Assembly: GCA_020536535.1 (NCBI GenBank)
Contig: JAHLWZ010000886.1
Coordinates: 1-59,165, forward strand
Direction of reading: 5' to 3'
Source of the DNA: Pelomyxa schiedti
Lineage: Eukaryota > Protista > Evosea
Length of the DNA: 59,165 nucleotides
The notes under the pieces were generated by a model. It did not search any database and was not told where the DNA came from. It saw only the letters and a list, made by a program, of their open reading frames with translations. Below, in pieces: positions 2,461-42,223 of this stretch; the stretch's first letter is position 1, and every line of letters begins with the position of its first letter. The position numbers were made by a program, and so were the translations under genes.

Positions 2461-5400
2461 TCAAAGACGAGAGGGCGTAGAGGGAGTGGGGCTTCCTCCT
2501 GGGGGAAGAGCGGGGAGGGTCTGGGACAGGCGGTGCCCGTTGGGGGGCAGGGGGCGGACCGTGGCGGGGCTGGCGGTGACCAGCGGGGGCGGGGGCACCG
2601 GCGTGGGGTTGGCGTTGACTGCTGGGGGAGGCGGGATGGCTGGCGGGAGTATGGCTGGCTGCTGCTGCGGCGGGGGCGGCGGCGGCTGCTGCGGCAGGCC
2701 GCCCGGGGGGCTGACGCCCGGTGCCGTGGATGGCGGTGGGAGTGGGGTGGGGGCGGAGGGCTGGAGGGAGCCGACTTGCCAGCCACTGGGGCGGGCCGAG
2801 GTGGACCGGGCGAGCGGCGGCTTGGTGGTCGGAGTGCCTGGCGTGGGGGCGGTGCTGGTGGCGGGGGTGACGATGGGCGGGGGAATGGCCGTGTTAGGGG
2901 GAGCAATGGCAGTAGAGCTGGCGGGAGGTGGGATAGTGGGGGTAGAGGGAGGGGGGATGCTTGGTGTGGAGGGTGGCGGGATTGTGGCAGGAGTTGGGGG
3001 TGGAGTGGAAGATAGAGGGGGTGGAAGAATCGCTGGCTGAGGTATGGGGGTAACTATTTGTGTAGGTGGTTGAATTGGCGCCGTTGTTGGAGGAGTGGTG
3101 TGTTCCGGCTCCCTTCTAGCTGAAGGGTGCGCAGGTGTGAAAGAGTGTGGGACTGGAGGGGGTGGTGGAGGGGGAGGAGCAGGGGGAGCCATGATCGTTG
3201 AAGCGATATCTGATTGAATAGGAACAGCGGGACGTGCAGACTCGCCTATTTCAATTAACTGAAGGAGGTAAGAACTAATTTACTGCAAGACGTTCAAGAA
3301 ACCTTGAATAGGTCGCCTATCCTACGATCCAAGTCATACATTCGAAACATGAATGGTAAATTCATCCCCAAACTGTTAACTTCGCCTTTCACCTCTTGGA
3401 TAAGCAGCAATGCAGCTTTCCTGTATGGAATAAGTTTACATATCATTGGAAAAGAAGGCCACCTGATCGATTGAGACTTCTCCAATGAAACTTGGTTCGC
3501 GGCAATATTAACATATGGGATGCTCTTTTGCTTGTACGTATCACACAACGGGGACTGAAGGAGTGAACTCATCTAACTATGTTGGTCTTGTGTGAGAAAA
3601 TGAAGACTTGTTACCTCACGTGCAAGCTTACTTAAATAGACAATTTCCGAGATTGCCTCAGATTCTGTAATCATTTAGTTGAATTTATGTGATATTGGAA
3701 AAACCAGCAGTTCTGAGGTACAACTCATCTAACCTCTTTTGGATTCGATCGAAGATTTTTGTGACACGTTTCTTGGGTAAATCCAAATCGGCCTATGATG
3801 GTAAAAAAGGGTCCCCGTCGGACAAACATGCCTCATTGACTGTGATTGGGTCGTTCCATTCGGGTGGCACATCTGGGGTCAATCCTGTACCCACTAAACA
3901 GGAATTAGATCTTGTTTAACCTTCCCAATTCCCCCTTGGTACCCACCATCAGCTTGTCCTTGCTGTTCAAGTTTCCTTATTTTATTTCGAAGTAGCCTAT
4001 TTTCTGCTTCAGCAGCCCTCCTCAATGTAGACTCACGTTCAGCAAAACTGTGCAAGGATTCACAGTAGTCTTCAAGTTGTTTGAAGAATAGTATGCGAGA
4101 TTTCACTGCATTTGCAAGGGGGAGTGTGCCATCATCAACTTCTTCGTCAGCACCAGTGGTCTCAGTGGAAGGTGCTGCTGATGTTGATCCCTCAAGTTTA
4201 AACTTCCGGTCAAAACCCTTCTTCTTGTTGCTTGCCAGCTCGATGAGAAGTTGGCAGTCATACTAAAGGTGCTCTCAATGGAAGAAAATTCCACATGGTG
4301 TGGGGATACCGATGGAAACTTCTTACTGATATGATCAACAATAAGGTCAACACCCTTAGTTACTTGTTGAAGGAGAAAGTTGAGGTCTTCATCTTGGTTT
4401 TCCTCAGGTTCTGCTAAAGGGGCCCCACTATCAGGTAATGGTGATGCGACCTACTTGATTAGAAATCATTTGGCGCAACTCTGATTTACACACTGAAATT
4501 TGGTCCAAAAAGTTTAGTAAAAGAGGAATATTTCTAGCTATGACTTTGTTTATTGTAGAAAGTTGCTCGTTGGAGGATGGATTAGCAAATTCAACACCAT
4601 TCGCAAGTTTTTGTAGAAGTGTGGAGATCTTTTGTCGAATTAGCTGGTTTTGACCAAACGTGTAAATACCATCATGACAGTTTTCATTGATTGTTCATTG
4701 GGCTTTTCTGGATGGTTTTAAGAAAAAAAGAAAAGTTTAGCGAGGTTTCTACCGGGAAGTATCCCGGCTGTATCAGGGGTCAGAACGGCAGGGCACAAGA
4801 ATCTTAAAAACAAAAACCCCCCAACAGCAATTGTTTTAATTTGAGGTGATTTCTTGGCTACTTCCGTATAGACATGATGGAAGATTTGCCGCAATATCCT
4901 GTTGAAAAAAAAAATATTTTTACTTTTGAAAGATGTATCTACCACATACATTGGACAAGCTTCCTTTGAGGCAAAGATTTTGTCGCACAAGTCTTGGAGT
5001 ATCCCAGTCAGCCTAGTCACGCTTGCGTTCAAATCTACACCTTCTGGTGCACTTAGTTGTGTGAGATGTCCACTCAACTTTACTAAATTAGAAGAAATAC
5101 GTGATGGACATGTACCTGTAAGTTGAAGTCTCTTGCAGTCACTTGGGAAAAGAAGGGGCCCAAGCAAAATCTTAGATAATCTCTTCCGTATTTTCTGTAA
5201 TATACATTCATCATCCGTGTGGCAAGTGAGTTGTTTCTAAACAATGTCTCCGCCTTGGCTTTTTTTTTTCCCCCTCAATGTTATAACGAGTGGAGGTTGC
5301 ACACCAGCATACTTGTCTCCTTTATTTCCTCGTTGATAGCCCATTTGATCAAATTGTTTGCCACACCATAGGAGAGATGAATTGTTGCAAGAGCTTCAGA

Positions 5401-6611: not shown

Positions 6612-9600
6612 TCAAGCTGTAGAAAATTGCCAGAATCCAGTCCCATACCTTTTATTTGTGGTGAGTGAAAAATAACTCTTGGAATAGTAGAAACAATTCG
6701 TCAGCCCAGGGGAACTTTTCTCTCACTTTGGGGCCACAATCCTTTCCAAGTGTGCAAACAATGAGCCCATTCAGGATAACACTGTGATCATTCACCTTGA
6801 TGTTTTGATAGTTGAGCCGTTTTGTGGCATTAGTAGGAATGATTACCTGTTGGCCTCCATCCAAGACTATATTGTACAGTTTATGAACAAATGTGGAAAC
6901 AGGTGTTGCTACAGTGAAGGGATGTACCCATTCGCCTTGAAGGCAAATAGGGTGACCAGGAGTAAGCCCAACTCCACAAACATAAGCCATTGACTGCATG
7001 CAGTCTAGAGTGCGAATAGAGAGCAGGGCAATCCTTCTGGGCCGCATTTGCTCACTCAACACCAAGTCGCCATCACATAAATCCTCCACTTTTCTGTAAG
7101 GGTTACTCGGAATTTTCAGTGTACAATAAGTCGGTACTTGCGACTATAATCACTCATAAGGATATACGCATCTCCAAGAAAGCATGCGGCTCTATTTGGC
7201 CCCTTGGTATGTGTGAAATGGATGACGATGTGAAACAACTATTTGACTTCTGAACCTTAAATGGATCGACTGTAATTTTCACAACTTTGGGGGTTGAATT
7301 TTTCCATAGTAATTTCCGTGCTTGTGATAGAACTGGAAGCGATGAAAACCAGTGTTGGCCCCCAATAATTACACACAGGTTTTCCGCAAATTTGTTTTCT
7401 CACTGCTATGTACAAAGGGCCTCCATAAAATATCATCATCGCATAATGAATAGAATGCTTTACATGTCTGATTGGAATCTGAGCTTATATAATAGGGAAG
7501 CAATAATACGTGGCCAAGTAAGCACAACTCTTCTGCACTCAGATATGACAGTACCAACAACCAGCACTGGTGGGGCATACGAGTAACAGGATTATAGAAA
7601 AGTGAAAATGTGTATCCATCTCCAAGGATTCTGGCCTCGGTTTGGCGCAATACTCCTCCACAAAGGAAAACTGCTTGTCCTCTTGGTACAACTGAGTGAA
7701 ACTAAATTCTATCAAGAAAGCATACGGGATACACAAACTTACCTCCCTTGATACAGGTGCAGCCTCACTTTTCGCTCTGGACCATATTTTTTTAGACAAA
7801 TCTAGGCTTTTACGTTATTAGCTTCTATCTGTATAACCTAGCACTTACACGGAAAATTCGCACGCTTCACTTTCATTAGCTGACCCGACGACAACGAATG
7901 TTGAATCGTCTATGAGGCAACCACGATTGCCTCTCTGAGGTGTGGGGGGTAAACCAAATGATGTGTGGCATGACCAAGTGAATGTGGCTTCGCTGAGGTT
8001 GACAGACCACAGGTCAGAAAACTTGATCCTTTTTTCATTGATGCCACCAAAGACAAACATTTCACCTAGACTTGGGAAACTGTTAGAAAAAGAAGGATTT
8101 GGATTAGGGTTTGCCAGCACGTATCATACCTTGTTACAAATGCAGAGTGGTAATGCCGCCCTGGAGGTGTTACAGAACCTGCATCAACTCTATGCCACTC
8201 GGCCGTCGTAAGATTGAATTCTATGCACCTTTAGATATTTTGCTTTCCTTCCATTTTACCATATAAACGATGAGAAGACATCCCCGGAGAGTGAAATCCA
8301 CCAAAAAGATATAGCTTCCCATTCCAACTATGCAGACTCAGGTGAAATTAAAAAGGTAAGATACATACTGCACTAAGGATGCACCAATTAGGGCCGCTGG
8401 TTCTTCAGGGCCGACGCAAGTATTAAGTCTTTGAAGGCCACAGTCTGGCATTTCTATCAAGAATAGGGATCTCGAAAAAGATACAGATGCTGAAGGAAGA
8501 GTACTGCTCGGAGGTGATGCAGTTGATTCTGAAGCAACAGTTTCTCCCTCTGTTACTACCGTACTAGATTGTGGAATTTCTGAGTCCAAGGGAACTGTTG
8601 AGGATGCGGTTGGGCTAGAGGCTGTATCAGATAAATTCCCGCCATAGAGAAAAATCCTGTTCCCCACCTGACAAGCTGCTGGAAACTGTGAACCGCCAAA
8701 AGATACACCACTGCATGTCAAGGGGATGGGCGGCAGCCATTTTCTTGTAGTTAAATTAAATCTTTGTGCAGTGCGCGCAGGCACCTTGGAGGAGTCACAG
8801 CCTCCAACTATGTATAAAATGTCATGTAGTACTGCAGAAGAATGGCCATAACTAAATTTGAAAACGATAAGAGCAAAGGTATTTGTGTTTCGTATATACC
8901 GACAGCAGGGTTCTGCAACTGAAGGTGGCCCAAATATTGATTCACAACATACTAGGCCAGAGGTGGATGATAACACAGGTGCAGGTAACGAACTAGGAGG
9001 GGGTGGGGTCGAACTTGATCCGAAAAGTAACCGAGAGAAAAATCCTGTTCTATATTAGTATTTTATTAGATGAGAGGCTACTTTCCAGGAGTACTCGGCT
9101 TTTTTTTGGCATCAGGAGAGTAGTTAATAGCTTCAAACATAACGTCAATAAGAGTCTGTTCATTTGTTTTTTTGCTCCAAGGAGAGACTTCTACATAAGC
9201 ATATGCACCAATGTCATCAGCTATCTTTTGAAATGGGGGAAAAAAAACAAAAAAAACGGGATAGTGAGTGCTTCCTCACACATCTGAGCTTTCGTGGATA
9301 TACCTGGACTCCCTCTTTCCAGTAAAAAGAGTCACTCATTGATTCTCGAGGACCTGCGATAGCGACCAAAACTATGGCTACACCAGGGCAGTTGTTCCAT
9401 GCTTCTGGGAACCACTTTTGGACAATCTCATGTTTAGTCAGGCCAAAAAACGAGAAGCCGATTCTGAAGCATAGGAGAAACAAGTCGGTCCCGGGATACG
9501 AGAGAGGTCGGTCCCAGTCCCTGAACTCGTATTCCATGCGGACAATGTCGTGGATCTCGAAATTAAAGTCGTCTCCGTTCGAGGTCTTTTTGCGCAAAGC

Positions 9601-15278: not shown

Positions 15279-18200
15279 TTAGGGGATACCTGTTGTGAGC
15301 CATGTGTCGTGGAACGTGGGATTGGAGGACCAGAATTCCATGTTGGCTTGTAGGTTGCTCTGTATTTCACAGCAGGGAACTATTTTGGTGTATGTGTTGA
15401 GTAGCGGCTGTGCCAGGAGGTTGATGAAGTTGGCTTGAAGCTTTGGGAGCTTGGTTAGTCCATTGTTGCGGTCTGTGAAGGGGCTCAAAGGAATGCTCAG
15501 TTCGGCCTGTGGGTTGGGATTTTGGCCCCAAGTGGTTGTTAGGGATGAGTCAGAGAATAAGGGCATGTACCTCCCGGTCTCCTTGTCCAAAGAATTCTTC
15601 AACAAGTTTGCTGACCCAGAAAAGCATGTTCTTGTGGGGTCTCATACACTACGAAATTAGAGAAAAGACAGGATAACAGGAAGGAAATGTTTGGTCCTTG
15701 GGCCTTACATTGGAAATGTCCGCTACTTTTAGGGTTACACTCATCAGTTGAACTCTGTGATCGAGGTTCTGTATGGGATCAAATTTTCCTCCCTCAAGCA
15801 CGGTCTGTGAAAAAAGTACCAGTTAAGAAAAGAACTGTTTTGAATCTGGGGGAAATGTAGGATACTTGTAACTTGGACAGAATTTCAAAATGATGAGAAA
15901 TATCAGTTCCAAGCACGAGTTCGATTATTGTGGTTCGCACTAATGAGAGCTTAACAATGACACGATCAACAAGAACCAGTACCAAACTTCAGATCTGCCG
16001 GTGTGAAGCTCCACTCTTTTGCGTGCTGCAAAAGCAATTTTATGCCGATGCTTGCATGCAAATTCTCAAGTACACTTCGATCTGGATTCAGTTTGTTAGG
16101 CACCTTCTCTGTACGTGGGCAGGAAACCATTAAATTGAACTGCTATTGGATCGTTAGTCGCAGTCAAGAAAGCCTTTCATCCAGATGTTAGTTATAGAGT
16201 AACTGAAAGCTAAATACATTGTTCACCCCAGGGTGCCCAACCTAAACCCCTTTAAAACAAAGGATAGTTCCTTTCTACACACGTCATGCATCACGGCGGC
16301 ACATATGAGAGAAAATATTTCCAAATACGGCGTTGGCCCAAGAAGTGGTAATAGACCGTGGGTCATAATGTAGTAGATACATTGCACCACATCCGTTGCA
16401 TGGTGCGAATTATGATAGGGATTGTCCTTTCAAAAGTAGTGGGTGAGCGGAATTTAGGCTGTAGTCTTACTTTGTAGAGGCTTTCTACATCACGAAACAG
16501 GGATTCCACTTCTCCAAGTTTAATACTGAGATGATCAAATACACTCAGTTTGAGGAGCACTTGCAATGCGATTCTTGTCAATAGATCTTCTTTGTGCATA
16601 TATTTAGTTTCTACCTATGGCATTGTTTTTAGGCCAGTGAGGGGTATAGTTATAATGTAACCATATAATCCCAATTCTCTAGATTAGTTAATAAATCTGG
16701 GTCCTCATAAAGCTGCTCGATTGCCAAGGCATCGGGTATAGAAGGAGAGGTATGCACAAAGATACTGTGGGGATGAGATAGCCCATTAGGAATGATTTCA
16801 CAGTCCAGCCTGTTCTTATTGGGAGGTTGAAGGTTTAAACCAATAAACATACCATTTTTGAACATCAGTGTCCAGCAAAGAGCTTTGAACCTTGAAATCA
16901 GGCTTGAAGAGGCCTTCTGTGCATTCCAGCATTTCAATAATTGATTCCACAGTCTGATGGGCTGTCGTGCTCATCAGAGTTTTGTTTAGATTTCTCAATT
17001 TGTCAATCACCTAGAGATCTTAAGTTCAATTTAAAATTTAGGGAATACCAACTTTCATCATTCCTGAGTCAAGGTTTATCTGAGCTGGTCTGATTCCTTT
17101 CTGAGGTTTTGAAAGGGAGATTGAGGAGAGAACCCTTAGTTATAGTAAGACATCGTAGATATGGAGGAATAAATACGATAGCGCCACTAGGAACCCAACA
17201 ACTCCTATGGAAATATAAACGGAAATCTGGGAAACAGAATTGAGATATGCATCACTGTTGACAGTAAATTACAGTTGAGAAAAGCAAAACGACCTGTTCT
17301 GTGTGGCAATCACAACGACCCACTGAACATCCTCAAAAAGAGTGAAAGGTGCCGCTTGGCTGATTGGGAAAAAAATAAATTGAGGAAAAAGGGAGGTTGG
17401 GTACTAACATGTGGAGATCTCCATATTCCCCAGATACAGCCTCAGTAATTCCTACGAGACTAGGGACTTTTTTTAACAAAATAGAGCATGTATCAAGAAT
17501 TCGTTCATCACCAGACTCATCTGGGTAAATAGCACTGCCAGTCGTTAGTTGGGCAACTCGTTAGCAGGGCATTACCCAAGCGATGTGTCTGGAATGGAGA
17601 AATTGCCAATTGTAGCAATAAGATGTCCTGTACTGTCTATAATATAAGCAAATTCCGTATCTTCACGAGGAATTTCGTTCAAAATAGTATTAATCTATTT
17701 CAGGGTATTAGGAAGGAAATTGCAGGAAGTGGTGTCTTACCTTTGGTATGGACATTCCAGCCACAATCCAGGATAGAGGTGTGCTATTGGACGAGTAGAT
17801 AATCTTAGAAAAATGGGAGTTGGTTTTGTTGTAAATGACTCAAGCAGCATACTCTCGTCAATGTAACAAAGTATGTTATTCCAGCTCTTAAAATGGGTTA
17901 ACGCAAAATGACATTAATGGAGATAAATACCCCGTAAACATAGATCTCGTATCATTAAAAAATTGCCCAGTTGCAACAGCAGGAGTCATCCACGGTCCCC
18001 AGTAGAGAGGAATAGACATACAGAGCAACTAAGGAAAGGTGAATAAGGCTCTGTAAATAATCTATAGTACTTGATTCAATGCGCAAGTGTCTAGATCTGT
18101 GGCATAACCACACAATTTGCCATCATCCATCAATTTTGACCTCAGTAGTACAGTATAGAAGGAGTCTCCAGAAGCAACAACAGTCTGCGTCTAGTGATAT

Positions 18201-19414: not shown

Positions 19415-21489
19415 CTACGATTTTGAAGCTGTGCCGGGTGCAGTTCTGTTTCGTTTGGGCTGTGGCTCTGTGGGTGTTTCCGCTTCAGAGTTGCCATGTA
19501 CCTCCTTCTTCACTGACTTGTCTGTTGTGTTGCTTTCCGGCGCTGTGAGGGCTGCTGCTGTTGTTGATGCTGTGGCTGATGCTGATGCTGATGCCGTTGC
19601 CGTTGCCGTTGCTCCTTCTTCTTTGTGGGGCTGCGGTGCAGGTACAATGAGGTGCACGACTTGTGAATCAGGAACTGTGACAGATGCGGTCTCCATTCCG
19701 GAGGTTCCGTGCCCCTCCTGGTCCATCTGTGCAACAGACTTGACCGCATTGAGTGCCGGAGGTGCTGTGCTGAGGGCCGGGATGCTTTCGTCATACAAGT
19801 CGAACCACGGCAGCCCTGCTTCTGTGTATTTCTTGGCTGTTACTTGGCTCTCCGGCATATCGCGGCCGGTGAGATTCCTCCACATCATGCTGTTGGCGAC
19901 GTGGACAACGAACTTCATGCAGGATCCTTGGAACCATTCATGTATACCGAGGGGATCTTTGTAAATCTTCTGCTTCATCTTGCCACCTGCTGCAAACCCC
20001 ATTGCCTTGTATTCATCTGGGTCACCTCCTCCACGCAGCCGCAGTACAAGAAGCAATGTAGAATCGGGGCCAATTTTATAGTCTCCTAGTGCCTTTCCGT
20101 CTTCCAGCTGCTTTCCAGAAAAAATGAGCCTCTGTTCGTCTGGAGAAATTCCCTCATTATCATCAATAATTTCTCTGACTTCTTCAATGGTGCTGCTCGA
20201 CTTCACTGCGACTGCAAATTGTTTTCCAGAGAGGGTTTTAACGACAAGGTCAAATTCTGACGTTGCAGAACAGCTTTAAGTATGTCAAATACAAAAGAAA
20301 AAAGAATGGGAAAGTGCCTGAAAGTGACACGGTTTGTTGCTGGCGGCACAATATCACCAAGTCGTGCAGGACGTTGCCGCTCAAATTCTTGGGATTCGAG
20401 ACACACTAAGTCACCTTCCTGAAGGCCGAGCTCCCTTGGAGTTTTGGTGATGTCCAAGGGAACCCTTGAATCGGCTTCGGGCTTCCCGATGGAAAAGGCC
20501 TCGAAGTCCTTTGACACTCGCGGATACAGTCTGATTTCCAATCCCCCAACTTGTTCCCTTCCTGTGAGCTGACCCTCGACGGTGTATCCTGACCCCAGTG
20601 GCATTGCAACGAACTGCCTGATGAGTCCCCGGCTTACGTGAATCCCGTCCAACCACGGCTGTGGGGGGCACACCATGTAATCCTGCTCTCCCGTTTCAGC
20701 AAGCCCGCCGGTGCCATTCCCACCAGTCACAGCATTGACACCACCGATGCAAACCTTCACTGCTGCCGGTTCCGCCTCTTCGGAGCTGTTGAATGATATC
20801 CACATTGCCTCGCACTGCCTCATTGGCATCACACAGGACGTGCTGGCACCCTCGCTGGTCCAACTGGCCGGGACGTTGTGGCAGGATTCCAGAGGCTCGA
20901 GAGGAAACTGGCCGAGACCAGGAGGGAGAGGGTAGTCCTTGCCATCGTCGGGAATTCTCAGTGTCTTGTTGAAGCTCACAGTCATGATGTCTCCAAATTT
21001 GATCTTGCTCCCGTTGTGAATCTTGGCAGTGCGGCCACCATGCAGCCACCAGTTGAATGAGTGAATTAAACTGACATTGGATTTCAGAACCGCGTGTTCA
21101 CTCACACTCGTAACTTGAGGTGTTGTAGTAGTCGTAGTCGTCGAATTTGTGTTTGTATTCGTAGTTGTCTTTGTAGTTGTACTCGTAGTGGTTGATGCTG
21201 TTACGCTTGTATTTGCATTCGACTCCACAGCATCAGTTCTTACAGAGCCAGTCTCAGTGTCAGATACTCTGAATGTTTTGGTCTCCTCAGTCACTATCCT
21301 TGGCAACCTTTTTTCATTGTACAACAAGTGTGGTGCCTGTGGCATTCTGCGAAAGAGTGTCGTTACAACTTAGGTTGGAGTACGAAAGGGCACTCACGAA
21401 AGTTGCTTCTGGGCCAACGTAATGAATTCATCTACGGTCGTTTCGCGTGTCGTAGCGATCTCGGTCTCCCCAACAACCACCGTTAGCAT
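19415..21489 (-). CDS. Ubiquitin-insert protein, tandem copy A (ubiquitin domain 20027-20254 inside a conserved uncharacterised domain)
   Basis: [26 protein letters not shown]...[15 protein letters not shown]...[21 protein letters not shown]; then Ub [11 protein letters not shown]...[14 protein letters not shown]...LVLRLRGG; then [17 protein letters not shown]...[14 protein letters not shown] intron at 20274-20317. Confidence 0.85.
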
Positions 21490-21995
21490 TTGGTTGATTA
21501 TAAAAAAGAAATTTCTTTTTATCAACCACTCGTGTTTGAATCAGAAATTAAACTTTGTGTGGTTCTCCTTCTTTTGGGCTGCGGTGCGGAGCAGGCAACG
21601 ACGTGCACGACTTGTGAATCAGGAACTGTGACAGGTGTTGTTTCCACTCCATGGCTGCCGTGCCCCTCCTGGTCCATCTGTGCAACAGACTTGACCGCAT
21701 TGAGTGCCGGAGGTGCTGTGCTGAGGGCCGGGATGCTTTCGTCATACAAGTCGAACCACGGCAGCCCTGCTTCTGTGTATTTCTTGGCTGTTACTTGGCT
21801 CTCCGGCATATCGCGGCCGGTGAGATTCCTCCACATCATGCTGTTGGCGACGTGGACAACGAACTTCATGCAGGATCCTTGGAACCATTCATGTATACCG
21901 AGGGGATCTTTGTAAATCTTCTGCTTCATCTTGCCACCTGCCGCAAACCCCATTGCCTTGTATTCATCTGGGTCACCTCCTCCACGCAGCCGCAG
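19707..21995. repeat. Near-identical direct repeat blocks 19707-20044 and 21658-21995 (further blocks at about 20795-21085 / 22735-23025)
   Basis: Direct comparison shows one substitution in about 338 bp. Confidence 0.9.
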
Positions 21996-23375
21996 AACAA
22001 GATGAAGGGTGGATTCTCGTTGAACTCTATAGTCAGTAAGTGTTCGGTCATTATCCAGCTGCTTTCCAGAAAAAAGGAGCCTCTGTTGAACGCCGGGGAT
22101 TCCCTCACTTTCTTGGAGGAGGTGTTTGAGTTCATCAACAGTGGTGGTCGGCCTCACTTCGATTGTCTGGGTTTTGCCAGTTAATGTTTTAACAAAAAGT
22201 TGAAATTCTGGCATCACAGAACAGCTGCAACAAAGTCAGGGAAATGAAAATAATAATGGGAGAGTGCCTGAAAGTGACACGGTTTGTTGTTGTCGGCACA
22301 ATATCACCAAGTAGTGCAGGACGTGGAGGCATAAACTCTTTGGATTTAAGAGACACGAGATCACCCTCTTGAAGGCCGAGCTCCCTTGGAGTTTTGGTGA
22401 TGTCCAAGGGCACCATTGAATCGGCTTCGGGCTTCCCGATGGAAAAGGCCTCGAAGTCCTTTGACACTCGCGGATACACTCTGATTTCCAATCCCCCAAC
22501 TTGTTCCTTTCCCGTGAGCTGACCCTCGACGGTGTATCCTGATCCAAGTGGCATCGCAACGAACTGTCTGATCACGTCTGGACTGACATGTATTCCATCC
22601 AACCACGGCTGTTGAGGGCACACCACGTAATCCTGCTCTCCTTTTTCAGCAAGCCCATTGGTGGAGTTCCCGCCAGTCACAGCATTGACACCACCGATGC
22701 AAACCTTCACTGCTGCCGGTCGTGTACTTTTGAATGACATCCACATTGCCTCGCACTGCCTCATTGGCATCACACAGGACGTGCTGGCACCCTCGCTGGT
22801 CCAACTGGCCGGGACGTTGTGGCAGGATTCCAGAGGCTCGAGAGGAAACTGGCCGAGACCAGGAGGGAGAGGGTAGTCCTTGCCATCGTCGGGAATTCTC
22901 AGTGTTTTGTTGAAGCTCACAGTCATGATGTCTCCGAATTTGATCTTGCTCCCGTTGTGAATCTTGGCAGTGCGGCCACCATGCAGCCACCAGTTGAATG
23001 AGTGAATTAAACTGACATTGGATTTCAACACAGAGTGTTCACTCACACTCGTAACTTGGGGTGTGGTAGCGGTGGCGGCGGTCGTGTTTGATTCCACAGA
23101 AGGGTCGCTCACATTTCCAGTCTCCATATCAGATACTCTGAATATTTTGGTCTCCTCAGTCACTATCCTGGGCAGCCTTTTTCCATTGTACAGCAAATGC
23201 GGTACCTGTGACATTCTGGAATTGTTAGAGAGCCTGGGGTTACAGAAGAGCGAAAATGAATATGAAGATTGAAGGTCACGTACGAGAGTTTCTTCGATGC
23301 CAACACCACGAACTCATCTACGGTTGTATCGCGGGTAGTCTCAATCTCAGTCTCACCAACAACCACAGTAAGCAT
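21522..23375 (-). CDS. Ubiquitin-insert protein, tandem copy B (ubiquitin domain 21978-22205)
   Basis: Same architecture as copy A. Ub [12 protein letters not shown]...[11 protein letters not shown]...[13 protein letters not shown] is 49/76 identical to canonical ubiquitin by hand count. GC-AG intron at 22225-22267. Confidence 0.85.
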
Positions 23376-23655: not shown

Positions 23656-26600
23656 ATGTCCTCTTCGTCGGAACCAGTGAGCAGCAGTGACGAGGACTAC
23701 AAACAGGAGGACGACGACCAGGGCTCGTCGTCCTCGTCCCATGATTCCGCTTCGCGCTCCTCGTCCGACACTGACGGCAAGTCGCGGGCCAGATCGCGCC
23801 GAGGAAGGAACGGCACGCCCACGTCCGCGGCATCGAAATCTCCACTTACATCGACATCTGCCTCTACGTCGACGTCTCTTTCTTCGTCGCGATCGCCGCC
23901 GGGGAACAGCCGCGAGGATGGAGGACGTAGTAAATCTACTAGAACAGTGAAGGCCGGCGCTAGTTTGTTGTGGAGGGAAGAAGATTCCAAAGATTACGGC
24001 GCCGGCGACGAGGAAGACGACGACGAGGACGAGGAGGAAGAGGACGAGCGAAAACTGAGGTCTAAAGTAAAGCAGAGGGGCGGCGGAAGTGGCCGCAATT
24101 ATGGGAGCGGGAACGGAAGCGCCAAGGGGAAGTCTGTTCCGGCACCTGCTCCAAAGAGGAGAAGGACCGGCGGTACTTCCAGGAATTCCACTTCTGCAAC
24201 TGCAGCTGCAGTGAATTATAATCCGGGTATAGTAAATCTCCATTATTCAGGCATTTGGTGTTGTTTTAGTAAGTAACCTGGATTTTCTTTTTGCCCCCTC
24301 CACTCTTCAAGGTTGGACGACCAAACCTTCTTCAAAGTCTCCTCCCTCTAAGCAATCATTGGCATGGGATAAGGCACGAGAAAAACCCTCAGAGCACATA
24401 AAACACTTTTTTGAGTTCATGCGCCAAAAAGAGGAGAAACTCACCCAACACCCTGTACATATCATTCTAAGTGATGACGAAAGCACTGATAAAGTATGTG
24501 TGTTCTGCGTGAGACTACAGGGTCACTGATCTGTACCCAGCATACTGAAACTGCAAGCGCAGATGGAGCCTCAAGACCTCCTTTATCAACACATAAGAGT
24601 ACCATTCTCGCACCCAATAGTGACAGTGACTTTGATCCAAGCCCTATTAAACCTCGTGTGCATGTAATACGTGAGTGAACATTCACCTCTTTTTTCTTAA
24701 AGTTTAACTTCCCTTCAGCCGATTCACCACTACAACGAGCAGGAGCACCCCTTTTTCCTTCCAAGGTTACACTTTGTTCTTCCACACACCCACCAATGCG
24801 CAAATGCCTAGGTTTCCCAGAGTTCAGAAAATACAGAAATTTCTTCCCCCATCAAGGGGGATTGCGCTTCCAGTCCAGGGGAGAGTTCAAACACTAAGTG
24901 TACTTCAAATTCTGATGGAATGTTGGAATGTCCTATTTGTGGACTCACAATGCCACGATGGCGGGAGAATGATATGCAAACACATATCAATCACGAATTG
25001 AATAAGGCAGAAAGCATTCCAGCCAATGCCCACCCACTGAGCACAGGAGCTTTCAAACTCCCTCCAGAGCTGGAAGAGACATCCAGTGAAGAGGATTTAC
25101 CACCACAAATGCGAACGAGTATGCATCTCAATTATCTTCTTCTTTTCCTCATTTTTAGTTTGGGAACGAAAGAAGAATGCCTTAAGTGAAATTCGACAGC
25201 GAAGAAGACTGTCCAGCTTGAGCAGTGGTCTGCACCAACAACATATAAAGTGTTAACTTCACTACAGATGATATTCCAAGTAGATCTCCTCCGGCATCAC
25301 CCAATAAACCAGTGGCAAATGAAGAAAAGCCCAAAACCACCCCACCAAGGAAATCTCTTCTGCTGTCTGTATTTGCTGGTTCTGACAATGAAAATGAAGA
25401 TAATACGTACTATTCCTCTATTCATCTTTCATTTTTTTCCCTGAACAGTTTCTTTAGTCCCTCATCTAGCACCTCACAACGGGTTTGTCCCTCCCATCTG
25501 AATCTAATAATACTACCACTAAAAAAAAAAAAAATTCTGACCCGATGAATACCAGGTTCGACTGAGGAAGACTTGCGGTATTTTCATTTTCTGAATCTCT
25601 TCCTCTAAAAAACTTTAAGAGATCAATTCCACCCCCAGTAGCGCACGTACTGCAGCATCTCCAATTATAATAGATGACACGTCTCCTAAGAAAGAAGATG
25701 TAGCAACAGACAGTAGTGCAAGTGCTGAAATGACATCATCAGGAGAAGACTCTACTTCATCAAATGACAAAGTACCACCAAAACGTGTCACGAAACCGAA
25801 CAAGCACATGTCAGTTGAATCACAGTTAAATATCCTTTTGAGTGTCTGAACTAAATTCTAATTCAATCACCTGGTGTTTGCATTAATTTGTGTACCTGAA
25901 TTAATCCAAGTTTGTGAGAATCACTCCAAAACCATGAATGCCCGCTTGGAAACCTGGGAGTCTCCCGAAGGTTCAAGTGGTTGTATGCCCCTCCCTTGAA
26001 TATCTTTCCTAATTCAGTTTGTAGCCTCCACAAGTAGTACTCGTGTTGCCCAACCATCCTCTCTAAAGAGAGATCTCTATCCTTACCAGCTGGCAGGCCT
26101 GAATTGGTTGTATTTATTGCACCAAATGGAAATGAATGGCATACTTGCTGATGAGGTTGTGTCTATGCGCTGTTCCTTGCAAATTAACGCTCCCATAGAT
26201 GGGCTTGGGAAAAACTGTTCAGGTATTTATTCCACCACCAACTCCCACGATCTGTCATAGTGTTATATCATCCTGCCACAATTATCTCTAGCTTCTATAA
26301 ATGTAGGTAATCGCACTATTGGCATTACTTCATGAGAATGGTGACATTGGACCACACCTCATTGTAGTACCTGCAACTCTAATTTCTAACTGGGAAAGGG
26401 AACTCGCATCATGGTTGCTCTACATTCAGGTGGTTCCTTCTTACAGAACTAGGTGCCCAAACTTAGAAGTTTCCACCTATTATGGTCTCGAAAAAGAACG
26501 CTATGAGATGAGACAAGAATATTTATCTGAAGGCTACTCTTTTAATGTAATGCTTACAACATACACTGTCTGCCAGAGAAAGGGTGATAAGCATTTCTTG

Positions 26601-28536
26601 TCCAAACTTCCTTGGACATACGTCATATTAGATGAAGCACAGGTAATATCTCTGTACCTTTCTTATGTCGTTTTACATACGTTAGAACATTAAAAATGCC
26701 GTGTCCAAGCGCTTTACAAGTCTGGTAAAGATTCCTTCTAAACGTCGGCTTCTTCTTACAGGCACTCCCTTACAAGTAGAGTCTACTTAAATAATATCAA
26801 CTCACTTATCAAGCCATGAAATCAGAATAACTTAAAAGAACTCTGGACATTGCTACAATTTTTGATGCCTACATTATTTGAAGGACCTCGTGATGACTTA
26901 TTTAAGCTTCTCTCTCTGAAATCACAGTCAGAGAAAAATACACAGCGCATCAAGAGCATTTTGGCACCTTTTATGCTTCGTAGACTAAAAACGCAGGTTG
27001 GGGTTTCCTTCACATGTGCAACCATTCAAAGAGTAAATAGGTTATTAAGCATCTCCCTAAAAAAGTTGAATCCATAAAACCTGTAAAAATGGCTGCAGTT
27101 CAAGAATCACTATATACAAGTATCATGCAAAAATCTCGCACCGCCTGGGCAGATTCTCGAATCACCTTGAGCACGTAATACTGCTAAACAAACTCTGTCT
27201 CATTGAATGTAGCGAGTGCAATGCGCAAGGAAAAGCAGAGTGCACCATCCAAAAAAGAAGCTGACGTTCGCAGACTACTCAAGAATCTGTTAATGGAACT
27301 TCGCAAGATGGCTAATCACCCCGTTTTGTGTAGGTGCTTCTACACAAATGAAACTATATCCTTCCTTTTCATGTTTTCGGAGCACAAATGAAACTCCTTT
27401 ACTGTCAATTCCACATAGATCTAATTGCTAAGGGACTGCATGAAAATCATGACTCTTCATTTGCTGGGGTTTCACTTGAGAGAATTGTTGAGGTACGGAG
27501 ACTTCCCTGACAACCAAAAGCTCACACATCTCAGGAACTGCAAAATTACTCTGACTTTGAGCTCCACTTATTGTGTGGTGATCGTACTTTTTTAGTGCAA
27601 CACTGCTTATCTGAGAAGGAACTTTTGGAGTCCTCAGGTATTCCAATCCCCGTTTGTAGTATGCTATTCAACAAAACAAAGGTAAGTTGATGTGTTTGAA
27701 GGACTTAGTGCAAACCCTTCCCAGTCAAGGGCACAAAGTGGGTTCCGTCATTTGCTCTATTCAATTATTTATCCCTGTTGTAGATCCTAATTTTTTCCCA
27801 AATGACTAAGATGCTGGTACCCTTTCCCGCCGTGGGAGTGGAACTAAGTTGTCCTAGGATATTATAGAACTTATGTTAGAAAGCATTCCCGTTAAATATC
27901 TACGCCTTGATGGTTCTACACCAGTTGCAGAGCGGGCAGATGTTATAGACAATTTCAACTCCAACGCGGTATCACTCTTCCATTCCGTTTCAACCCTCTC
28001 ACCCCCTGTTCTACATTTAACAGACAATATCGATTATGCTACTAAGTACTCTTGCTGGGGGTCTTGGCATTAACCTTACCTCAGCTGATACTGTAATTTT
28101 TTATGACCTGGCATTCAATCCCCAAGGTAAAAGCGAAGTGTAACTTCAGTTGCAATATTTTTAACCCGCTTCTCCTATTGCCAGTTGACAGCCAGGCGCA
28201 AGACCGGTTTTTCTCCCCCAACCCAAAAGTAATTAGTCTCACTCCAACTCAGGTGCCACCGCGTTGGACAACAAAGAACCGTAACAGTCTACAAGCTCAT
28301 TGCCCAAGGCACCATAGACAAACGTAATTCCTACCTTTATTTCTTCTTTGCTGTTCCTTTCCGCTTACTCCAATGTAATACAAACACCAATCAAAATAGA
28401 TATTCTCGACATGGCGGCGAGGAAACTCGAACTCCACGACGAGATACTGGAGGAAGGGTCGTGCGCGCGCTCACCAAGCGTTAGCAGAATGCCTGCCAAG
28501 AAGATTACAAGGCTATTTGACGCCCTATTTGCGTAA
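23656..28536 (+). CDS. SMARCAD1: SNF2-family chromatin remodeller, SMARCAD1/Fun30/ETL1-like
   Basis: [120 protein letters not shown]; long acidic/Ser-rich N-terminus. Confidence 0.85.
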
Positions 28537-37900: not shown

Positions 37901-38628
37901 AGTGCTAATATTTATAAACCTTGCAGATTGAACATAAGACAGCTTCACAGTAAACGCAAAAAAGATTTGCTTTCTCCTCAGGGTGTACATCACACTGTGA
38001 GAAAAAGGGTTGGGCAGAAGCCGAAACAGTGGAATTTTGAGGCACACTATAAGATCTGCTCAGATAGTTTAGATTGAAACGTAGGTACATCTCATGTAAC
38101 ACACGAATTACTCAGGACAGATGACTTCTCGCACGAAAATTCCCGGGGAACAGGTTGAGTAGGTGCCGCGAGCTTCGCCGAGCCCACGAAGGCGCCCACG
38201 ACAGCGACGAGCTGCGCGTTGCACGGTGCGTCGCCCGGCACCCACATCGTTTTGCACTTTGGGCACCACACGCGGCCCCCGCAGCATCCCCAGGGTCCGT
38301 CCCCCTCCCCCTCCTCGTCCGCGCCGGTGCCGCCAATGCCCACGTTTTTCCCTGCTCCCCCCGGCTCCCCCTCCCCAGCGCCGCAGCCGCTCGCGGTTTT
38401 CCCTCCTCCCCCGGCCTCCTGCAGTCCAGAGTCCGACGCAACCGCCACTGCGGTCGCGGGGCGTTCGGGAGTATCCGCGTGGACTTGTGGGGTAGACGCG
38501 ATGTTTGCTTGCTGGGAGCCGCGTGGGCAGCAGGCACGACAGGCGGAATGGCCGCAAGGGAACGTGACAGGGTCGTCAAGAAGCCGCTGGCACACGGGGC
38601 ACGACAGCGCGCGTCTGACTTCCTCCAT
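34934..38628 (-). CDS. TRIM-like E3 ligase: RING, B-box, coiled coil, second B-box/coiled coil, SPRY
   Basis: RING CPVC..LLDDPVTFPCGHSACRAC...CPKC. B-boxes CDVHPEEKANLFCVYCEAVLCSIC and CTQH...LLCTAC...LVCVYCSQLGDHRGH. SPRY end GQEVILVFDSNAHTASFTVNGNDLGVVFTGIAEAPLFPSVAMYDTGDSV. Single-gene continuity is inferred. Confidence 0.7.
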
Positions 38629-38786
38629 ACAAAATAACGGCTTGTGGAATCCCCAACTTGGTGTTCCTCTAGAAACAAACTGGGCACGTTGGGTTCATCA
38701 CACCAACACCCCAAGTCAGAGCTGGGCTCGCATACTGCAGCTCGTTCAATGGAAAGGAGAAAAACACAGTTCTATTAATTAATTGC

Positions 38787-39602
38787 TCAGTGGCCAGATG
38801 ATGCTGTGGTGGTTGTGGATGTGGGTGCGGTTGCGGACGGTCCCTCTGCTGCACTTTTGATTGCAGCTTCTATTTCATCAAGTTGGGACACAATGGTGGT
38901 GAGGTGGGGCTTGTCCATCTCAAAGCGGAGGACAGTTTGTGTTTGTTTCTGCCCGAGGTTGGTTTTTTTTTGTGGAATGAAGATAATTTGCATACGGCAA
39001 GCATTAGCTCGAATATTGCAGTCTGTTCGTTAATATCTGCAGCACCGGAGCTACGGGATTTGGCTTTGACATCGATTCTCCATGATACTTTTTCAAGGGT
39101 TGGGTTCCATGTTGTTCGTTTTCTCATTACATCGTGAATCTAGTACAACGGTTACGCTGGTATTACAAACTAAGACCTCACTTTGGCTCGTTGATTCTTC
39201 CAAAATTTCAACATAATGTCCTTTTGTGGTTGAGAAAAGGGTACCTGCATGCAAGCATTAGATTTTCCACTTGCACAATCAGCGGAGGCGCACTTTCTTC
39301 AGCTTCATAAATGTCTCAAGTTGAGACGCTTCATAGTCTTCGTAAGCAGCACGTGCAAGAATATCTTTGCACAGGTTGTACAACTGTTCAACAGCTGTGG
39401 GTTTTTTTGTTGTAAGAAGACGAAAAAGACACTGAGTGAAGTAGAGAGGCATCAAAGAAAAAGGAGCACCAGGGACTTCCAAAGCAGGGAACAATTTTTC
39501 TTTGAGGATCTGGACAGTGATTGTGTCGTCACGTTCGTACTCGCGTTTTACCACACCAACCAACAACGAGTGGAACGACCGTATGTTGTCCGCTGCTGCC
39601 AT
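38787..39602 (-). CDS. COMMD1: COMM domain protein 1
   Basis: ITVQILKEKLFP, QLETFM, IMLKFWKNQRAKIHD, WNPTLEKVSWRIDVK.KSR, AIFELML and LRFEMD...LDEIEAAI match the COMMD1 pattern. Confidence 0.85.
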
Positions 39603-39841
39603 TGTGCGCCTCCTCTCCCCTTCCAATCGTTTTTTTTCTTTTCTGATTATTTTTCTCTCAAAGAGATCCCAGGCAGGAGCATCAATCCGAGCCATCTCCG
39701 GAGAAAAGATTGTAAGGCACAGATGGACGGCCTCTACATCTGTGACTATGGGATGGTGAAGTGACGATTGGAGTGGATTTGCTGGGATTTTTTTCGTGAA
39801 AAACAAAAAGCCGAACGAGCGGCGATCAAACTGACAAATCC

Positions 39842-42223
39842 ATGGATGCATCTCTACGACACCGAGCAGAGCCCATTTTATCATTTTCACGCACACTATG
39901 GGACCTGGTAGGCCCCTTTTTCCTTTTTTTTCTTCTTGTTTTCGACTACCTCCTCCTTTTCCTTTTACTCTCTTTCTTTCCCACCACCTTTTCCTTTTCC
40001 AACACCACCAACACTGACCAAAGGGGGTGTGAACCACGTGTGTGTGTGTGTGTGTGTGACAGGTGTTGCCTATTGTGAGACACGCCAGGCACGAGTGGCT
40101 GGACCACAGCGAAGATCCGCCGTGGGTTGGCACGTGCCAGTGCATGTGCGCGACGGTGAGCCAGAAGGGGTTCTACTGCTTCGGCGACGAGGACCACGCC
40201 GCGTTGCTGCTGCTTTGCGCCGAGTCTTTCTTCCCACTCGAGGCTTTGGCCTGCAGGTTTTCCATTTCCCCTGTTTGGCATTGTTGTTTCCTGCTTTTGC
40301 CTTGTTCGTTTTTTTTCTTTATGTTGGTATTAGTTGGAGCTTTTGGACAAACAAACAAAACCAATGAAAGAATGCGTGGACGTTTGCGGAACTAAGTGCA
40401 ATAGGTGGGCTCATGATGTGCTAGTAAAGGCCAAGTATACTACGTTGTGTTTGGCCGAACCTCGGTATGGGGGAGCACTCACAGCGTGCGTGAAAGCGAG
40501 GTCGGATATATGCCTGCGTAGGATGGTATCCATGTTCCCCACGGAGCTTCTTGATGCAACTGCTGCTCTTTCCAGTGCATGTGAACTTGGTGACTTGGAT
40601 ACCGTTCAGTGGTTGCTACCCCAGGCTGAGAGAGCAGTAACCACTGCTGGCCAGAAACAGGAGGAACTGAATGTAGATCCAGATTACTGCCTGAAAGCAG
40701 AGGATGCGGAGCCTATTCCCGTAGCAGTTGACAAATATGGATTATTTACAATGGCCCACAAATCAGATAACACTGAGCTCCTTGATTTCATCGTGTCCGC
40801 CGCTAACATTGTGGATGACAATTATCGCCTTAACCAGGCCATACAGAGTGGTCGATTTTCTACAATAAAGCATGTCGTTGGTCAAATACCTCCAGATACT
40901 CTGCGCTGGAATCACTGGGTCTCTTCTTGTGCGACTACCAGTGTAAAAGTTGTTGAGTGGCTTTATGCTAAGGTTTCAAAGAGAGATCCAGTACCAGAAG
41001 AGTACACTCCTCCAACTATGTTAACAGTGGGCAATTGCACATCCGTGCCACCTTTTGACAACATTCCACTCTTTCCGAACATGGAATGCCCAGCTATATT
41101 TGCCGCCTCAGGTGGCAACATGCCAGTATTTGAGTGGTTGCTACACACGTTTCCTGAACGGTGTACAAAATTCCCAATGATTTTTGTGAAAGCCATCGCT
41201 GTTGCTGTAACCTTCGAACGTATCGAATTTGCAGAGGAACTCAGATCCAAAACACCAGGTTTTGATATTTCTGTGCAAATCGATCAGGAGACAAGGCACA
41301 AGATGTTTAAAGCAGCATGTCAGATGGGACGTGTCAACTCCCTGGAGTGGATGTTTTCACAAATACCTGATATTGCTGCGTGGAGCTCTAAGGAACCTGA
41401 CTGGGGTTCAATCTGTTCAGGTAACCATCTTGCGGTAATGAAGTGGCTTTCAAACCACTATACCATGAGCCCACAGTCCCTGATCTACGGCTTATGCAAC
41501 GGTTGCCGCGGCTCAGACCTGCGACTTGCACGCTGGATTGTACAACGCTTTCCACCAGCCTCAGGAGCAGACGTCGTGAAGAAGGATGGTGTGCTCTACA
41601 CAGCATGCTTTACCGGCTCCTTGGCAGCCGCCAAGATTATTGCGAAGCAGTTCAAAGTCACGGCCGAAGACGTGCGGATGTATGACAACGGCCTCCTAAA
41701 GAGTGTTTCCTGCAGCAAGAACATACCACTTGGCAAGTGGCTTGCCGACACGTACAAACTCACGCACGCCGACGCGATGGCTGGAGACAGGGAGCCTTTG
41801 CGCAACGCCATACGGTTCCGCAGCAGGGCGTTCGTTAAGTGGTTTGTGGAGAGATTCGACATCACCCTGGAAGACCTGATGGCCTCCGGGGCACTCATGG
41901 CCGCCTTTGAAGGTAGAGATTCTGCCAGTGACTCCCCGCCGGTCCTTATGTACTTATTCAACAAGTGCGTAACTTTGGCAATCGCCACTTCCCTCCTGTA
42001 TCTCCAACTAAGTGTTGCACGACGGTATAGGTTTAAAATGCCGTATGATGACGCGGTCAAAATAGGCAGGGAGGCGGCAGCGGAGGAGTATGCTAATGAG
42101 TGCTTTTCGCACATAGCTTACCCATTGGTTATACTGCCCAAATGGAAAGCATACTGCGAAAAACAAGGCATTCCACTCAAAGCCGCAAAGAAATCCAAGG
42201 AAGACCATTGCCTTTCAATGTAA
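39842..42223 (+). CDS. Degenerate ankyrin-like repeat protein with C-terminal CaaX box
   Basis: Repeated ACxxGxLxxxxWL units (ACELGDLDTVQWLL, AASGGNMPVFEWLL, ACQMGRVNSLEWM, CSGNHLAVMKWL, ACFTGSLAAAK); ends KAAKKSKEDHCLSM*. Confidence 0.75.

Follow-up and report, generated by a model that had tools for sequence, protein, structure and literature searches.

What becomes of an intact ubiquitin that is carried inside another protein domain with its diglycine tail in place? The question is raised by two genes of the protist Pelomyxa schiedti on contig JAHLWZ010000886.1 (assembly GCA_020536535.1), from which we analysed a stretch of 59,165 nucleotides, hereafter the window. Positions 19415-23375 hold exactly two tandem minus-strand genes, here called A and B, whose DNA is 88% identical over 1.5 kb (Table 1) and whose spliced sequences are, letter for letter, the database proteins P0002 and P0001, respectively. 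Each encodes a ubiquitin ending in LRLRGG that stands between the two halves of a single unnamed domain. We put at about one half the probability that the precursor is nicked by deubiquitinating enzymes (DUBs) after LRGG, that its halves stay together and that a free ubiquitin C-terminus is displayed.

The Pfam ubiquitin domain (PF00240) was found in the last exon of both genes (E 1.3e-22 and 2.6e-25), and the inserted segment superposes closely on ubiquitin (VIA Z 16.4, root-mean-square deviation (rmsd) 0.7, 73 residues aligned). The Pfam scan of both last exons returned ubiquitin-type families only and no L40, which shows 'Ubiquitin-60S ribosomal protein L40' to be a wrong name in the database. 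Ubiquitin contacts its activating enzyme (E1) and DUBs through residues that include L8, R42, I44, V70, R72 and R74. All of these are present in P0001, and likewise in P0002 with the exception of I44, which is Leu. In both genes LRLRGG is followed by glycine and not by proline, and an eight-residue linker lies behind the GG. This linker is predicted with low confidence in the AlphaFold2 model of P0002 (predicted local distance difference test (pLDDT) below 50 at 432-438), and is therefore likely exposed. Some 360-380 residues precede the ubiquitin and contain no upstream GG site, so that a free monomer could not be released.

This arrangement, which an earlier note on the locus had read from the DNA, is borne out by Pfam, by splicing and by gene B RNA. 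RNA contigs from two of three RNA runs (one sample) skip the 44-nucleotide intron of gene B, and a further RNA contig (19965-20174) crosses its GG junction; the N-half, ubiquitin and C-half of gene B are thus in one frame. Among the RNA contigs no piece is specific to gene A, which proves nothing. DNA contigs of run X4, which may be the source sample, contain both unique ubiquitin regions and the intergenic junction. We rejected an artefact of assembly or annotation, since in gene B the RNA connects the N-half with the ubiquitin and the latter with the C-half, and the X4 DNA contigs agree. For intron 1 of gene A a second possible acceptor, at 23216, would give 580 residues and corresponds to the gene B splice. 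A third Pelomyxa paralog, P0003, is located on a separate contig. RNA contigs of run X1 match only partly (loose ends at 19551-19593, a joint at 19868/19955) and may stem from P0003 or a further copy.

Both flanks of the ubiquitin match one bacterial protein of about 320 residues, in order and with no ubiquitin within. AlphaFold2 predicts this bacterial protein as a single confident beta-rich domain (pLDDT 91.6, predicted template modelling score (pTM) 0.90), and its sole disordered loop, residues 181-195, is the insertion site of the ubiquitin. Among the 222 members that lack ubiquitin the loop measures 20 to 697 residues. We therefore describe the host domain as a predicted beta-sandwich carrying ubiquitin in a variable loop. 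In some bacterial members (P0008, P0011, P0019 and relatives) an MshEN domain sits in the same loop.

Do the halves hold together once the chain is cut? Residues 116-435 and 436-565 of P0002, predicted as separate chains, scored 0.90 against 0.06 for the best control, with at least 64% contact agreement between runs, a partner pLDDT of at least 58 and over 400 contacts. Of 78 solved complexes 51 attain the mark used for this score, as do 2 of 108 mismatched pairs (39/65 and 2/126 in eukaryote sets); halves of single domains tend to pass pairing tests, and here no similar PDB structure was found. Strands are predicted to pair across the halves (444-450 with 254-259, and 475-479 with 184-188), and C-half strands belong to the sandwich core in the bacterial model. 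Cleavage behind GG would hence leave a nicked protein, with its halves still bound according to the prediction, and would not set a fragment loose. The searches and structure predictions agree with the proposal of the earlier note that the flanks are halves of one domain, and homolog searches found the domain uninterrupted in bacteria and with ubiquitin inserts in fungi, as it had suggested. Its expectation that processing leaves a large N-terminal fragment is not supported, as the C-half contributes core strands and is predicted to remain in place.

The fate of the GG tail was followed in homologs. A full-length search gave mostly polyubiquitins; of 314 homologs examined, 283 with both halves were counted and 31 incomplete ones left out. 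Ubiquitin occupies the loop in 61 of the 283, and the GG end is present in 58 of these 61 (42/44 full, 12/12 split and 4/5 partial ubiquitins), in a set of related members enriched for the eukaryote types by the queries. An RGG precedes the C-half in 2 of the 222 members without ubiquitin, which are the comparison here, in place of non-cleaved integral ubiquitin-like (Ubl) domains. All seven ubiquitins that have drifted below 55% identity keep GG. R72, L73, R74, G75 and G76 are retained in 84-97% (R72 and R74 in 84%), as compared to 47% for K48, 27% for K63 and a mean of 66%. In four of the 283 homologs a Hint domain (150-173 residues, Pfam Hint/PT-HINT) starts from a cysteine right after GG. 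These patterns support a tail that is conserved as though processed.

A RING is present in 59 of 283 homologs by our own pattern, all of the nested eukaryote type, and Pfam confirms the three RING-bearing ones scanned. Neither P0001 nor P0002 has a RING (Pfam scan and the same pattern) or a Hint domain. FastTree suggested independent ubiquitin insertions (P0371, P0405), which we do not claim: a single clade of all Ub/Ubl-bearing forms is not rejected (p-AU, the probability in the approximately unbiased test, 0.615; 62 of 283 rows).

The insert is larger than the ubiquitin. The earlier note was right about an intact ubiquitin, but not in taking it for the whole insert, which is 156 residues rather than 76 and includes about 67 residues of other Ubl-like pieces. 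In the 12 split-type homologs canonical ubiquitin residues 1-54 are N-terminal and about 52-76 follow the host N-half, and the Pelomyxa N-terminus and the segment ahead of the intact ubiquitin align with these split pieces. On the P0002 model (pLDDT 84.3, pTM 0.74) linear di-ubiquitin 2y5b aligns over residues 2..435 (144 of 150 residues, Z 15.8, rmsd 5.1); a second Ubl therefore begins at residue 2, and about 20 residues must be added to 1-51 to complete it. Judging by single-residue bridges at positions 18 and 338, these may be 335-355, and the fold is predicted to form with the intact ubiquitin a tandem like linear di-ubiquitin. A third Ubl may be formed by 59-115 and 291-328, judging by secondary-structure pattern only.

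Profile tests of this nested pairing, with N- and C-terminal pieces of folds A and B as in Table 1, gave 9.3 for A_N+A_C and 13.8 for B_N+B_C, neither above shuffles. The crossed pair A_N+B_C alone exceeded its shuffles (score 23.1 against a shuffle maximum of 13.0, probability 47.9), from which both pieces are Ubl-derived; the match does not show the pairing order. Thirteen stretches of split Ubl gave no Pfam match and no relevant PDB match. The second split Ubl may resemble SUMO; a sequence match to SUMO-like families was not obtained.

The model that we favor, nicking with retention of both halves, would run as follows. Each gene would give one precursor, with the intact ubiquitin in the variable loop of the predicted sandwich. 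The precursor would fold, and a DUB of the ubiquitin-specific protease (USP) type would cut behind G435 or G456, leaving the halves folded together as a nicked protein of about 60-70 kDa with a free ubiquitin C-terminus. We consider the cleavage itself likely; passages of a review (PMC9703124) state that cellular DUBs cleave ubiquitin fusions ending in GG, and that a protein fused to ubiquitin can, with its GG free, become charged and conjugated to other proteins. The free GG might be charged by E1, with L8, R42, V70, R72 and R74 present, and the complex conjugated. Once cleavage is granted, the most likely use of the free GG is charging by E1, after which the entire complex would be attached to a target or to itself, aided by RING in fungi, though with the odds somewhat against it; taken over all steps, charging and conjugation of the whole complex become doubtful. 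In fungal homologs a RING on the C-half would fit a self-contained ligase-modifier. The fullest version, in which these proteins are giant two-chain Ubl modifiers, each a bacterial/phage sandwich wrapped in nested split ubiquitins, nicked (or Hint-activated) and conjugated whole, with the fungal RING on the non-covalently held C-half, is tentative and rather unlikely in its entirety. Alternatively, the nick may serve as maturation or as a switch.

Several observations weigh against nicking, and many of these are what would be expected if the ubiquitin were instead an integral handle for the proteasome, p97, an E2 (ubiquitin-conjugating enzyme) or chain acceptance, with cleavage incidental or absent and GG a flexible linker or the trace of recent recapture. 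In 36 of the 283 homologs, including a clade of 28 with ascomycete names, a split-Ubl piece is kept without the terminal ubiquitin, which is thus dispensable there. A third glycine stands behind GG in 33 of 44 full ubiquitins, so that part of the GG conservation could be due simply to a flexible linker, and the further Ubl pieces have degenerated and lack GG. In 10 of 12 split-type members GG is followed by proline, which according to the same review resists DUB cleavage (PMC9703124). The tails of genes A and B are identical in a tract without synonymous change and are therefore not independent, and the Pelomyxa proteins have no RING. The relatedness and enrichment of the homolog set and the choice of comparison group also reduce the weight of GG retention. 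The four Hint members (C-ends HN-T and HNN-S) fall in one clade and so represent one event; their C-ends could simply permit splicing out. However, GG in all seven of the most drifted copies argues against recent recapture, an integral handle would leave unexplained why R72 and R74 are kept so much more often than K48 and why Hint begins exactly at GG, and, as stated in passages of PMC9703124, eukaryotic cells normally cut fusions that end in GG. We regard the integral handle as unlikely.

The loop could also be protease bait, the ubiquitin attracting or trapping DUBs of host or intruder in a family of substrate-type inhibitors or sensors, whose bacterial members perhaps act on neighboring proteases. 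Between paralogs the ubiquitin bodies (20027-20254 and 21978-22205) are 45% identical, with synonymous differences (pS) of 0.45, whereas the host halves are 92-100% identical. This contrast would suit a bait. However, tail and C-half of the paralogs differ by one synonymous change in 111 codons, the flanks have likely been homogenised by gene conversion, which explains the contrast, and positive selection on the ubiquitin was rejected (pN/pS, nonsynonymous over synonymous, 0.32/0.45, below 1). The split-type LRLRGG|P would bind a DUB and yet resist it, and bacterial members fused or adjacent to proteases, like a fungal member with MLKL_N (all described below), would also be in keeping; the family has no invariant Cys or Ser to trap an acyl-enzyme, and the bacterial loops share no common cleavage motif. 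Foldseek gave a weak likeness to wsv390-like proteins (E 6.4e-4, template modelling (TM) score 0.24; wsv390 itself E 0.014), and ORF390 is described in passages of PMC3317351 as a caspase substrate-inhibitor (leads also in PMC12656988 and PMC6683665), but the match has a low TM and an rmsd of 13.9. Bait is, in our judgment, decidedly unlikely. Least probable by far is that cleavage separates the protein, with the N-terminal fragment a stand-alone modifier or the C-half set free with a localisation signal or RING. The variable tails of the C-half would suit such release: RING in homologs, CaaX-like C-ends in P0003, P0004 and P0063, and basic motifs like nuclear localisation signals (assigned by eye) at the ends of genes A and B. 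The contribution of C-half strands to the sandwich and the contacts predicted between the halves speak against it.

Table 1. Features of genes A and B, in window positions
Feature	Position	Strand	Details
Gene A (P0002), 586 residues	21522..23375	-	Exons 23375-23284, 23233-22268, 22224-21522
Gene A introns	23234-23283 (GT-AG), 22225-22267 (GC-AG)	-	From spliced sequence
Gene A, N-terminal parts of two predicted split Ubl folds	22981..23375	-	Residues 1-115 (fold A, 1-51; fold B, about 59-115; Thr-rich spacer)
Gene A, host-domain N-half	22462..22980	-	Residues 116-288
Gene A, C-terminal parts of both predicted split Ubl folds	22218..22461	-	Residues 289-355; across intron 2
Gene A, intact ubiquitin fold	21978..22205	-	Residues 360-435; end LRLRGG; 49/75 identical to ubiquitin
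Gene A, host-domain C-half	21588..21953	-	Residues 444-565; begins MGFAAGG
Gene B (P0001), 659 residues	19415..21489	-	Exons 21489-21398, 21346-20318, 20273-19415; architecture as gene A; RNA-supported
Gene B second intron	20274-20317	-	GC-AG; keeps N-half and ubiquitin in frame; RNA contigs X2 and X3 join 20273/20318
Gene B, host-domain N-half	20512..21039	-	Residues about 134-309
Gene B, intact ubiquitin fold	20027..20254	-	Residues 381-456; end LRLRGG; 46/75 identical to ubiquitin, 36/75 to that of gene A
Gene B, host-domain C-half	19637..20002	-	Residues 465-586; first 97 residues identical to gene A

The host domain itself had no match in Pfam, NCBIfam, PHROGs, PDB sequences or named Atlas clusters. 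PADLOC gave no host-domain match, its lone weak hit (E 0.003) falling in the N-terminal extension of P0014, and Foldseek found no relative in the PDB (best E 0.19). A wide VIA search also gave no relative, the best rows being immunoglobulin-like sandwiches (Z 4.1, rmsd 4.1, 103 aligned), and P35 was not among the top 50 VIA rows for the host-domain model. These missing relatives do not establish a new fold. Across the 283 members conservation falls on Gly, Pro, aromatic and polar columns, the invariant polar residues being R143, E192, Q239, D243, Q254, E267, Q269, Q454 and D459. Cys is never conserved, the best His reaches 81% and the best Ser 77%, and a thiol or serine enzyme is therefore disfavored. 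The sandwich is probably a non-catalytic binding module with a regulatory or conflict role.

With an E-value limit of 0.001, a profile of the N-half recovered 3,823 clusters (50% identity), and the host domain spans bacteria, large phages, giant viruses, amoebae, fungi and other protists. Of 251 genomes sampled from one bacterial phylum, 17 carried it, and it was also present on six plasmids and on 29 viral contigs, many of them 190-620 kb. Giant-virus structural matches include a Harvfovirus protein (E 1e-21, TM 0.72) and a Ubl-containing protein of Hyperionvirus (E 3e-8). In a BFVD structure search, proteins of pithovirus, nudivirus, iridovirus and granulovirus (P22.2), all uncharacterised, were distantly similar in fold, and RING fusions occur among the giant-virus matches.

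A gene for an XRE-type helix-turn-helix (HTH) protein adjoins the host-domain gene in 15 of 16 loci of one phylum (related genomes), in 13 of 29 viral loci, in two of the three plasmid regions examined, and in none of the seven loci L001-L007. In many bacteria and large phages (L041-L056, L014-L036, L039, L040) the two genes form an undescribed two-gene unit. Fusion partners of the host domain are trypsin (in bacterial members; Pfam Trypsin_2 in 7 of 120 rows), kinase, TPR, vWA, ZZ and MLKL_N. The last of these is N-terminal in the fungal-type member P0400, a match (E 2.5e-5) that falls short of Pfam's cut-off. On a Bradyrhizobium plasmid (L038, 6001-12822) the host-domain gene is followed by M12 metallopeptidase, caspase-family and trypsin genes. 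There is a weak case for the host domain as a mobile regulatory or conflict module.

Elsewhere in the window, a Vint-type Hint domain (Pfam PF14623, E 2e-11) is encoded at 6655-7143 on the minus strand and is, as far as seen, unrelated to the ubiquitin-insert genes. Other neighbors are ordinary and include RasGAP, Kelch, cyclic-nucleotide phosphodiesterase, SNF2 helicase, RING, COMMD1 and ankyrin pieces (4721-5236, 8341-9054, 15282-15641, 26307-26690, 38095-38694, 39282-40172 and 40334-42220).

Ubiquitin fusion precursors (polyubiquitin, Ub-L40, Ub-S27a and FUBI-S30) likewise carry an LRLRGG-ending ubiquitin in chain with another protein, where cleavage after GG is expected. In Pelomyxa, however, the ubiquitin is internal, 61-65% identical and placed between halves of one domain, and no monomer is released. 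The four homologs with ubiquitin, GG and a Cys1 Hint resemble BUBL, the ciliate Ubl-BIL/Hint system that includes Tetrahymena BIL2. BIL2 conjugates its preceding Ubl without ATP, as described in passages of PMC8616854. In contrast, the Pelomyxa genes lack Hint, and the Hint homologs have a single unit inside the host domain without Ubl-BIL repeats. The Pelomyxa genes thus work like a ubiquitin fusion precursor yet release no free ubiquitin, and are neither Ub-L40 nor BUBL.

ISG15, FAT10 and engineered protein-ubiquitin fusions also bear a C-terminal GG on a larger protein, with a second (here predicted) Ubl in linear-di-ubiquitin order; the payload in the present case would be a putative two-chain complex of 60-70 kDa that includes a binding domain of its own. 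Integral Ubl-domain proteins and UBL-RING E3 ligases (Rad23, Parkin, UHRF1) are a further comparison, fungal homologs having a Ubl and a RING in one chain. Integral Ubls of the Rad23, Parkin and UHRF1 kind usually lack a cleavable GG, whereas it is kept in nearly all of the inserted ubiquitins counted here. As in engineered split ubiquitin, the fold is completed from two distant pieces in the 12 split-type homologs; here the arrangement is natural, in one chain and apparently nested twice. Searches of open-access literature turned up no account of this family. The architecture recurs across amoebae, fungi and other protists and is not specific to Pelomyxa. If the nick-and-conjugate model is true, these proteins would be a new kind of ubiquitin-like modifier with a folded payload, and would show a natural split-ubiquitin assembly.

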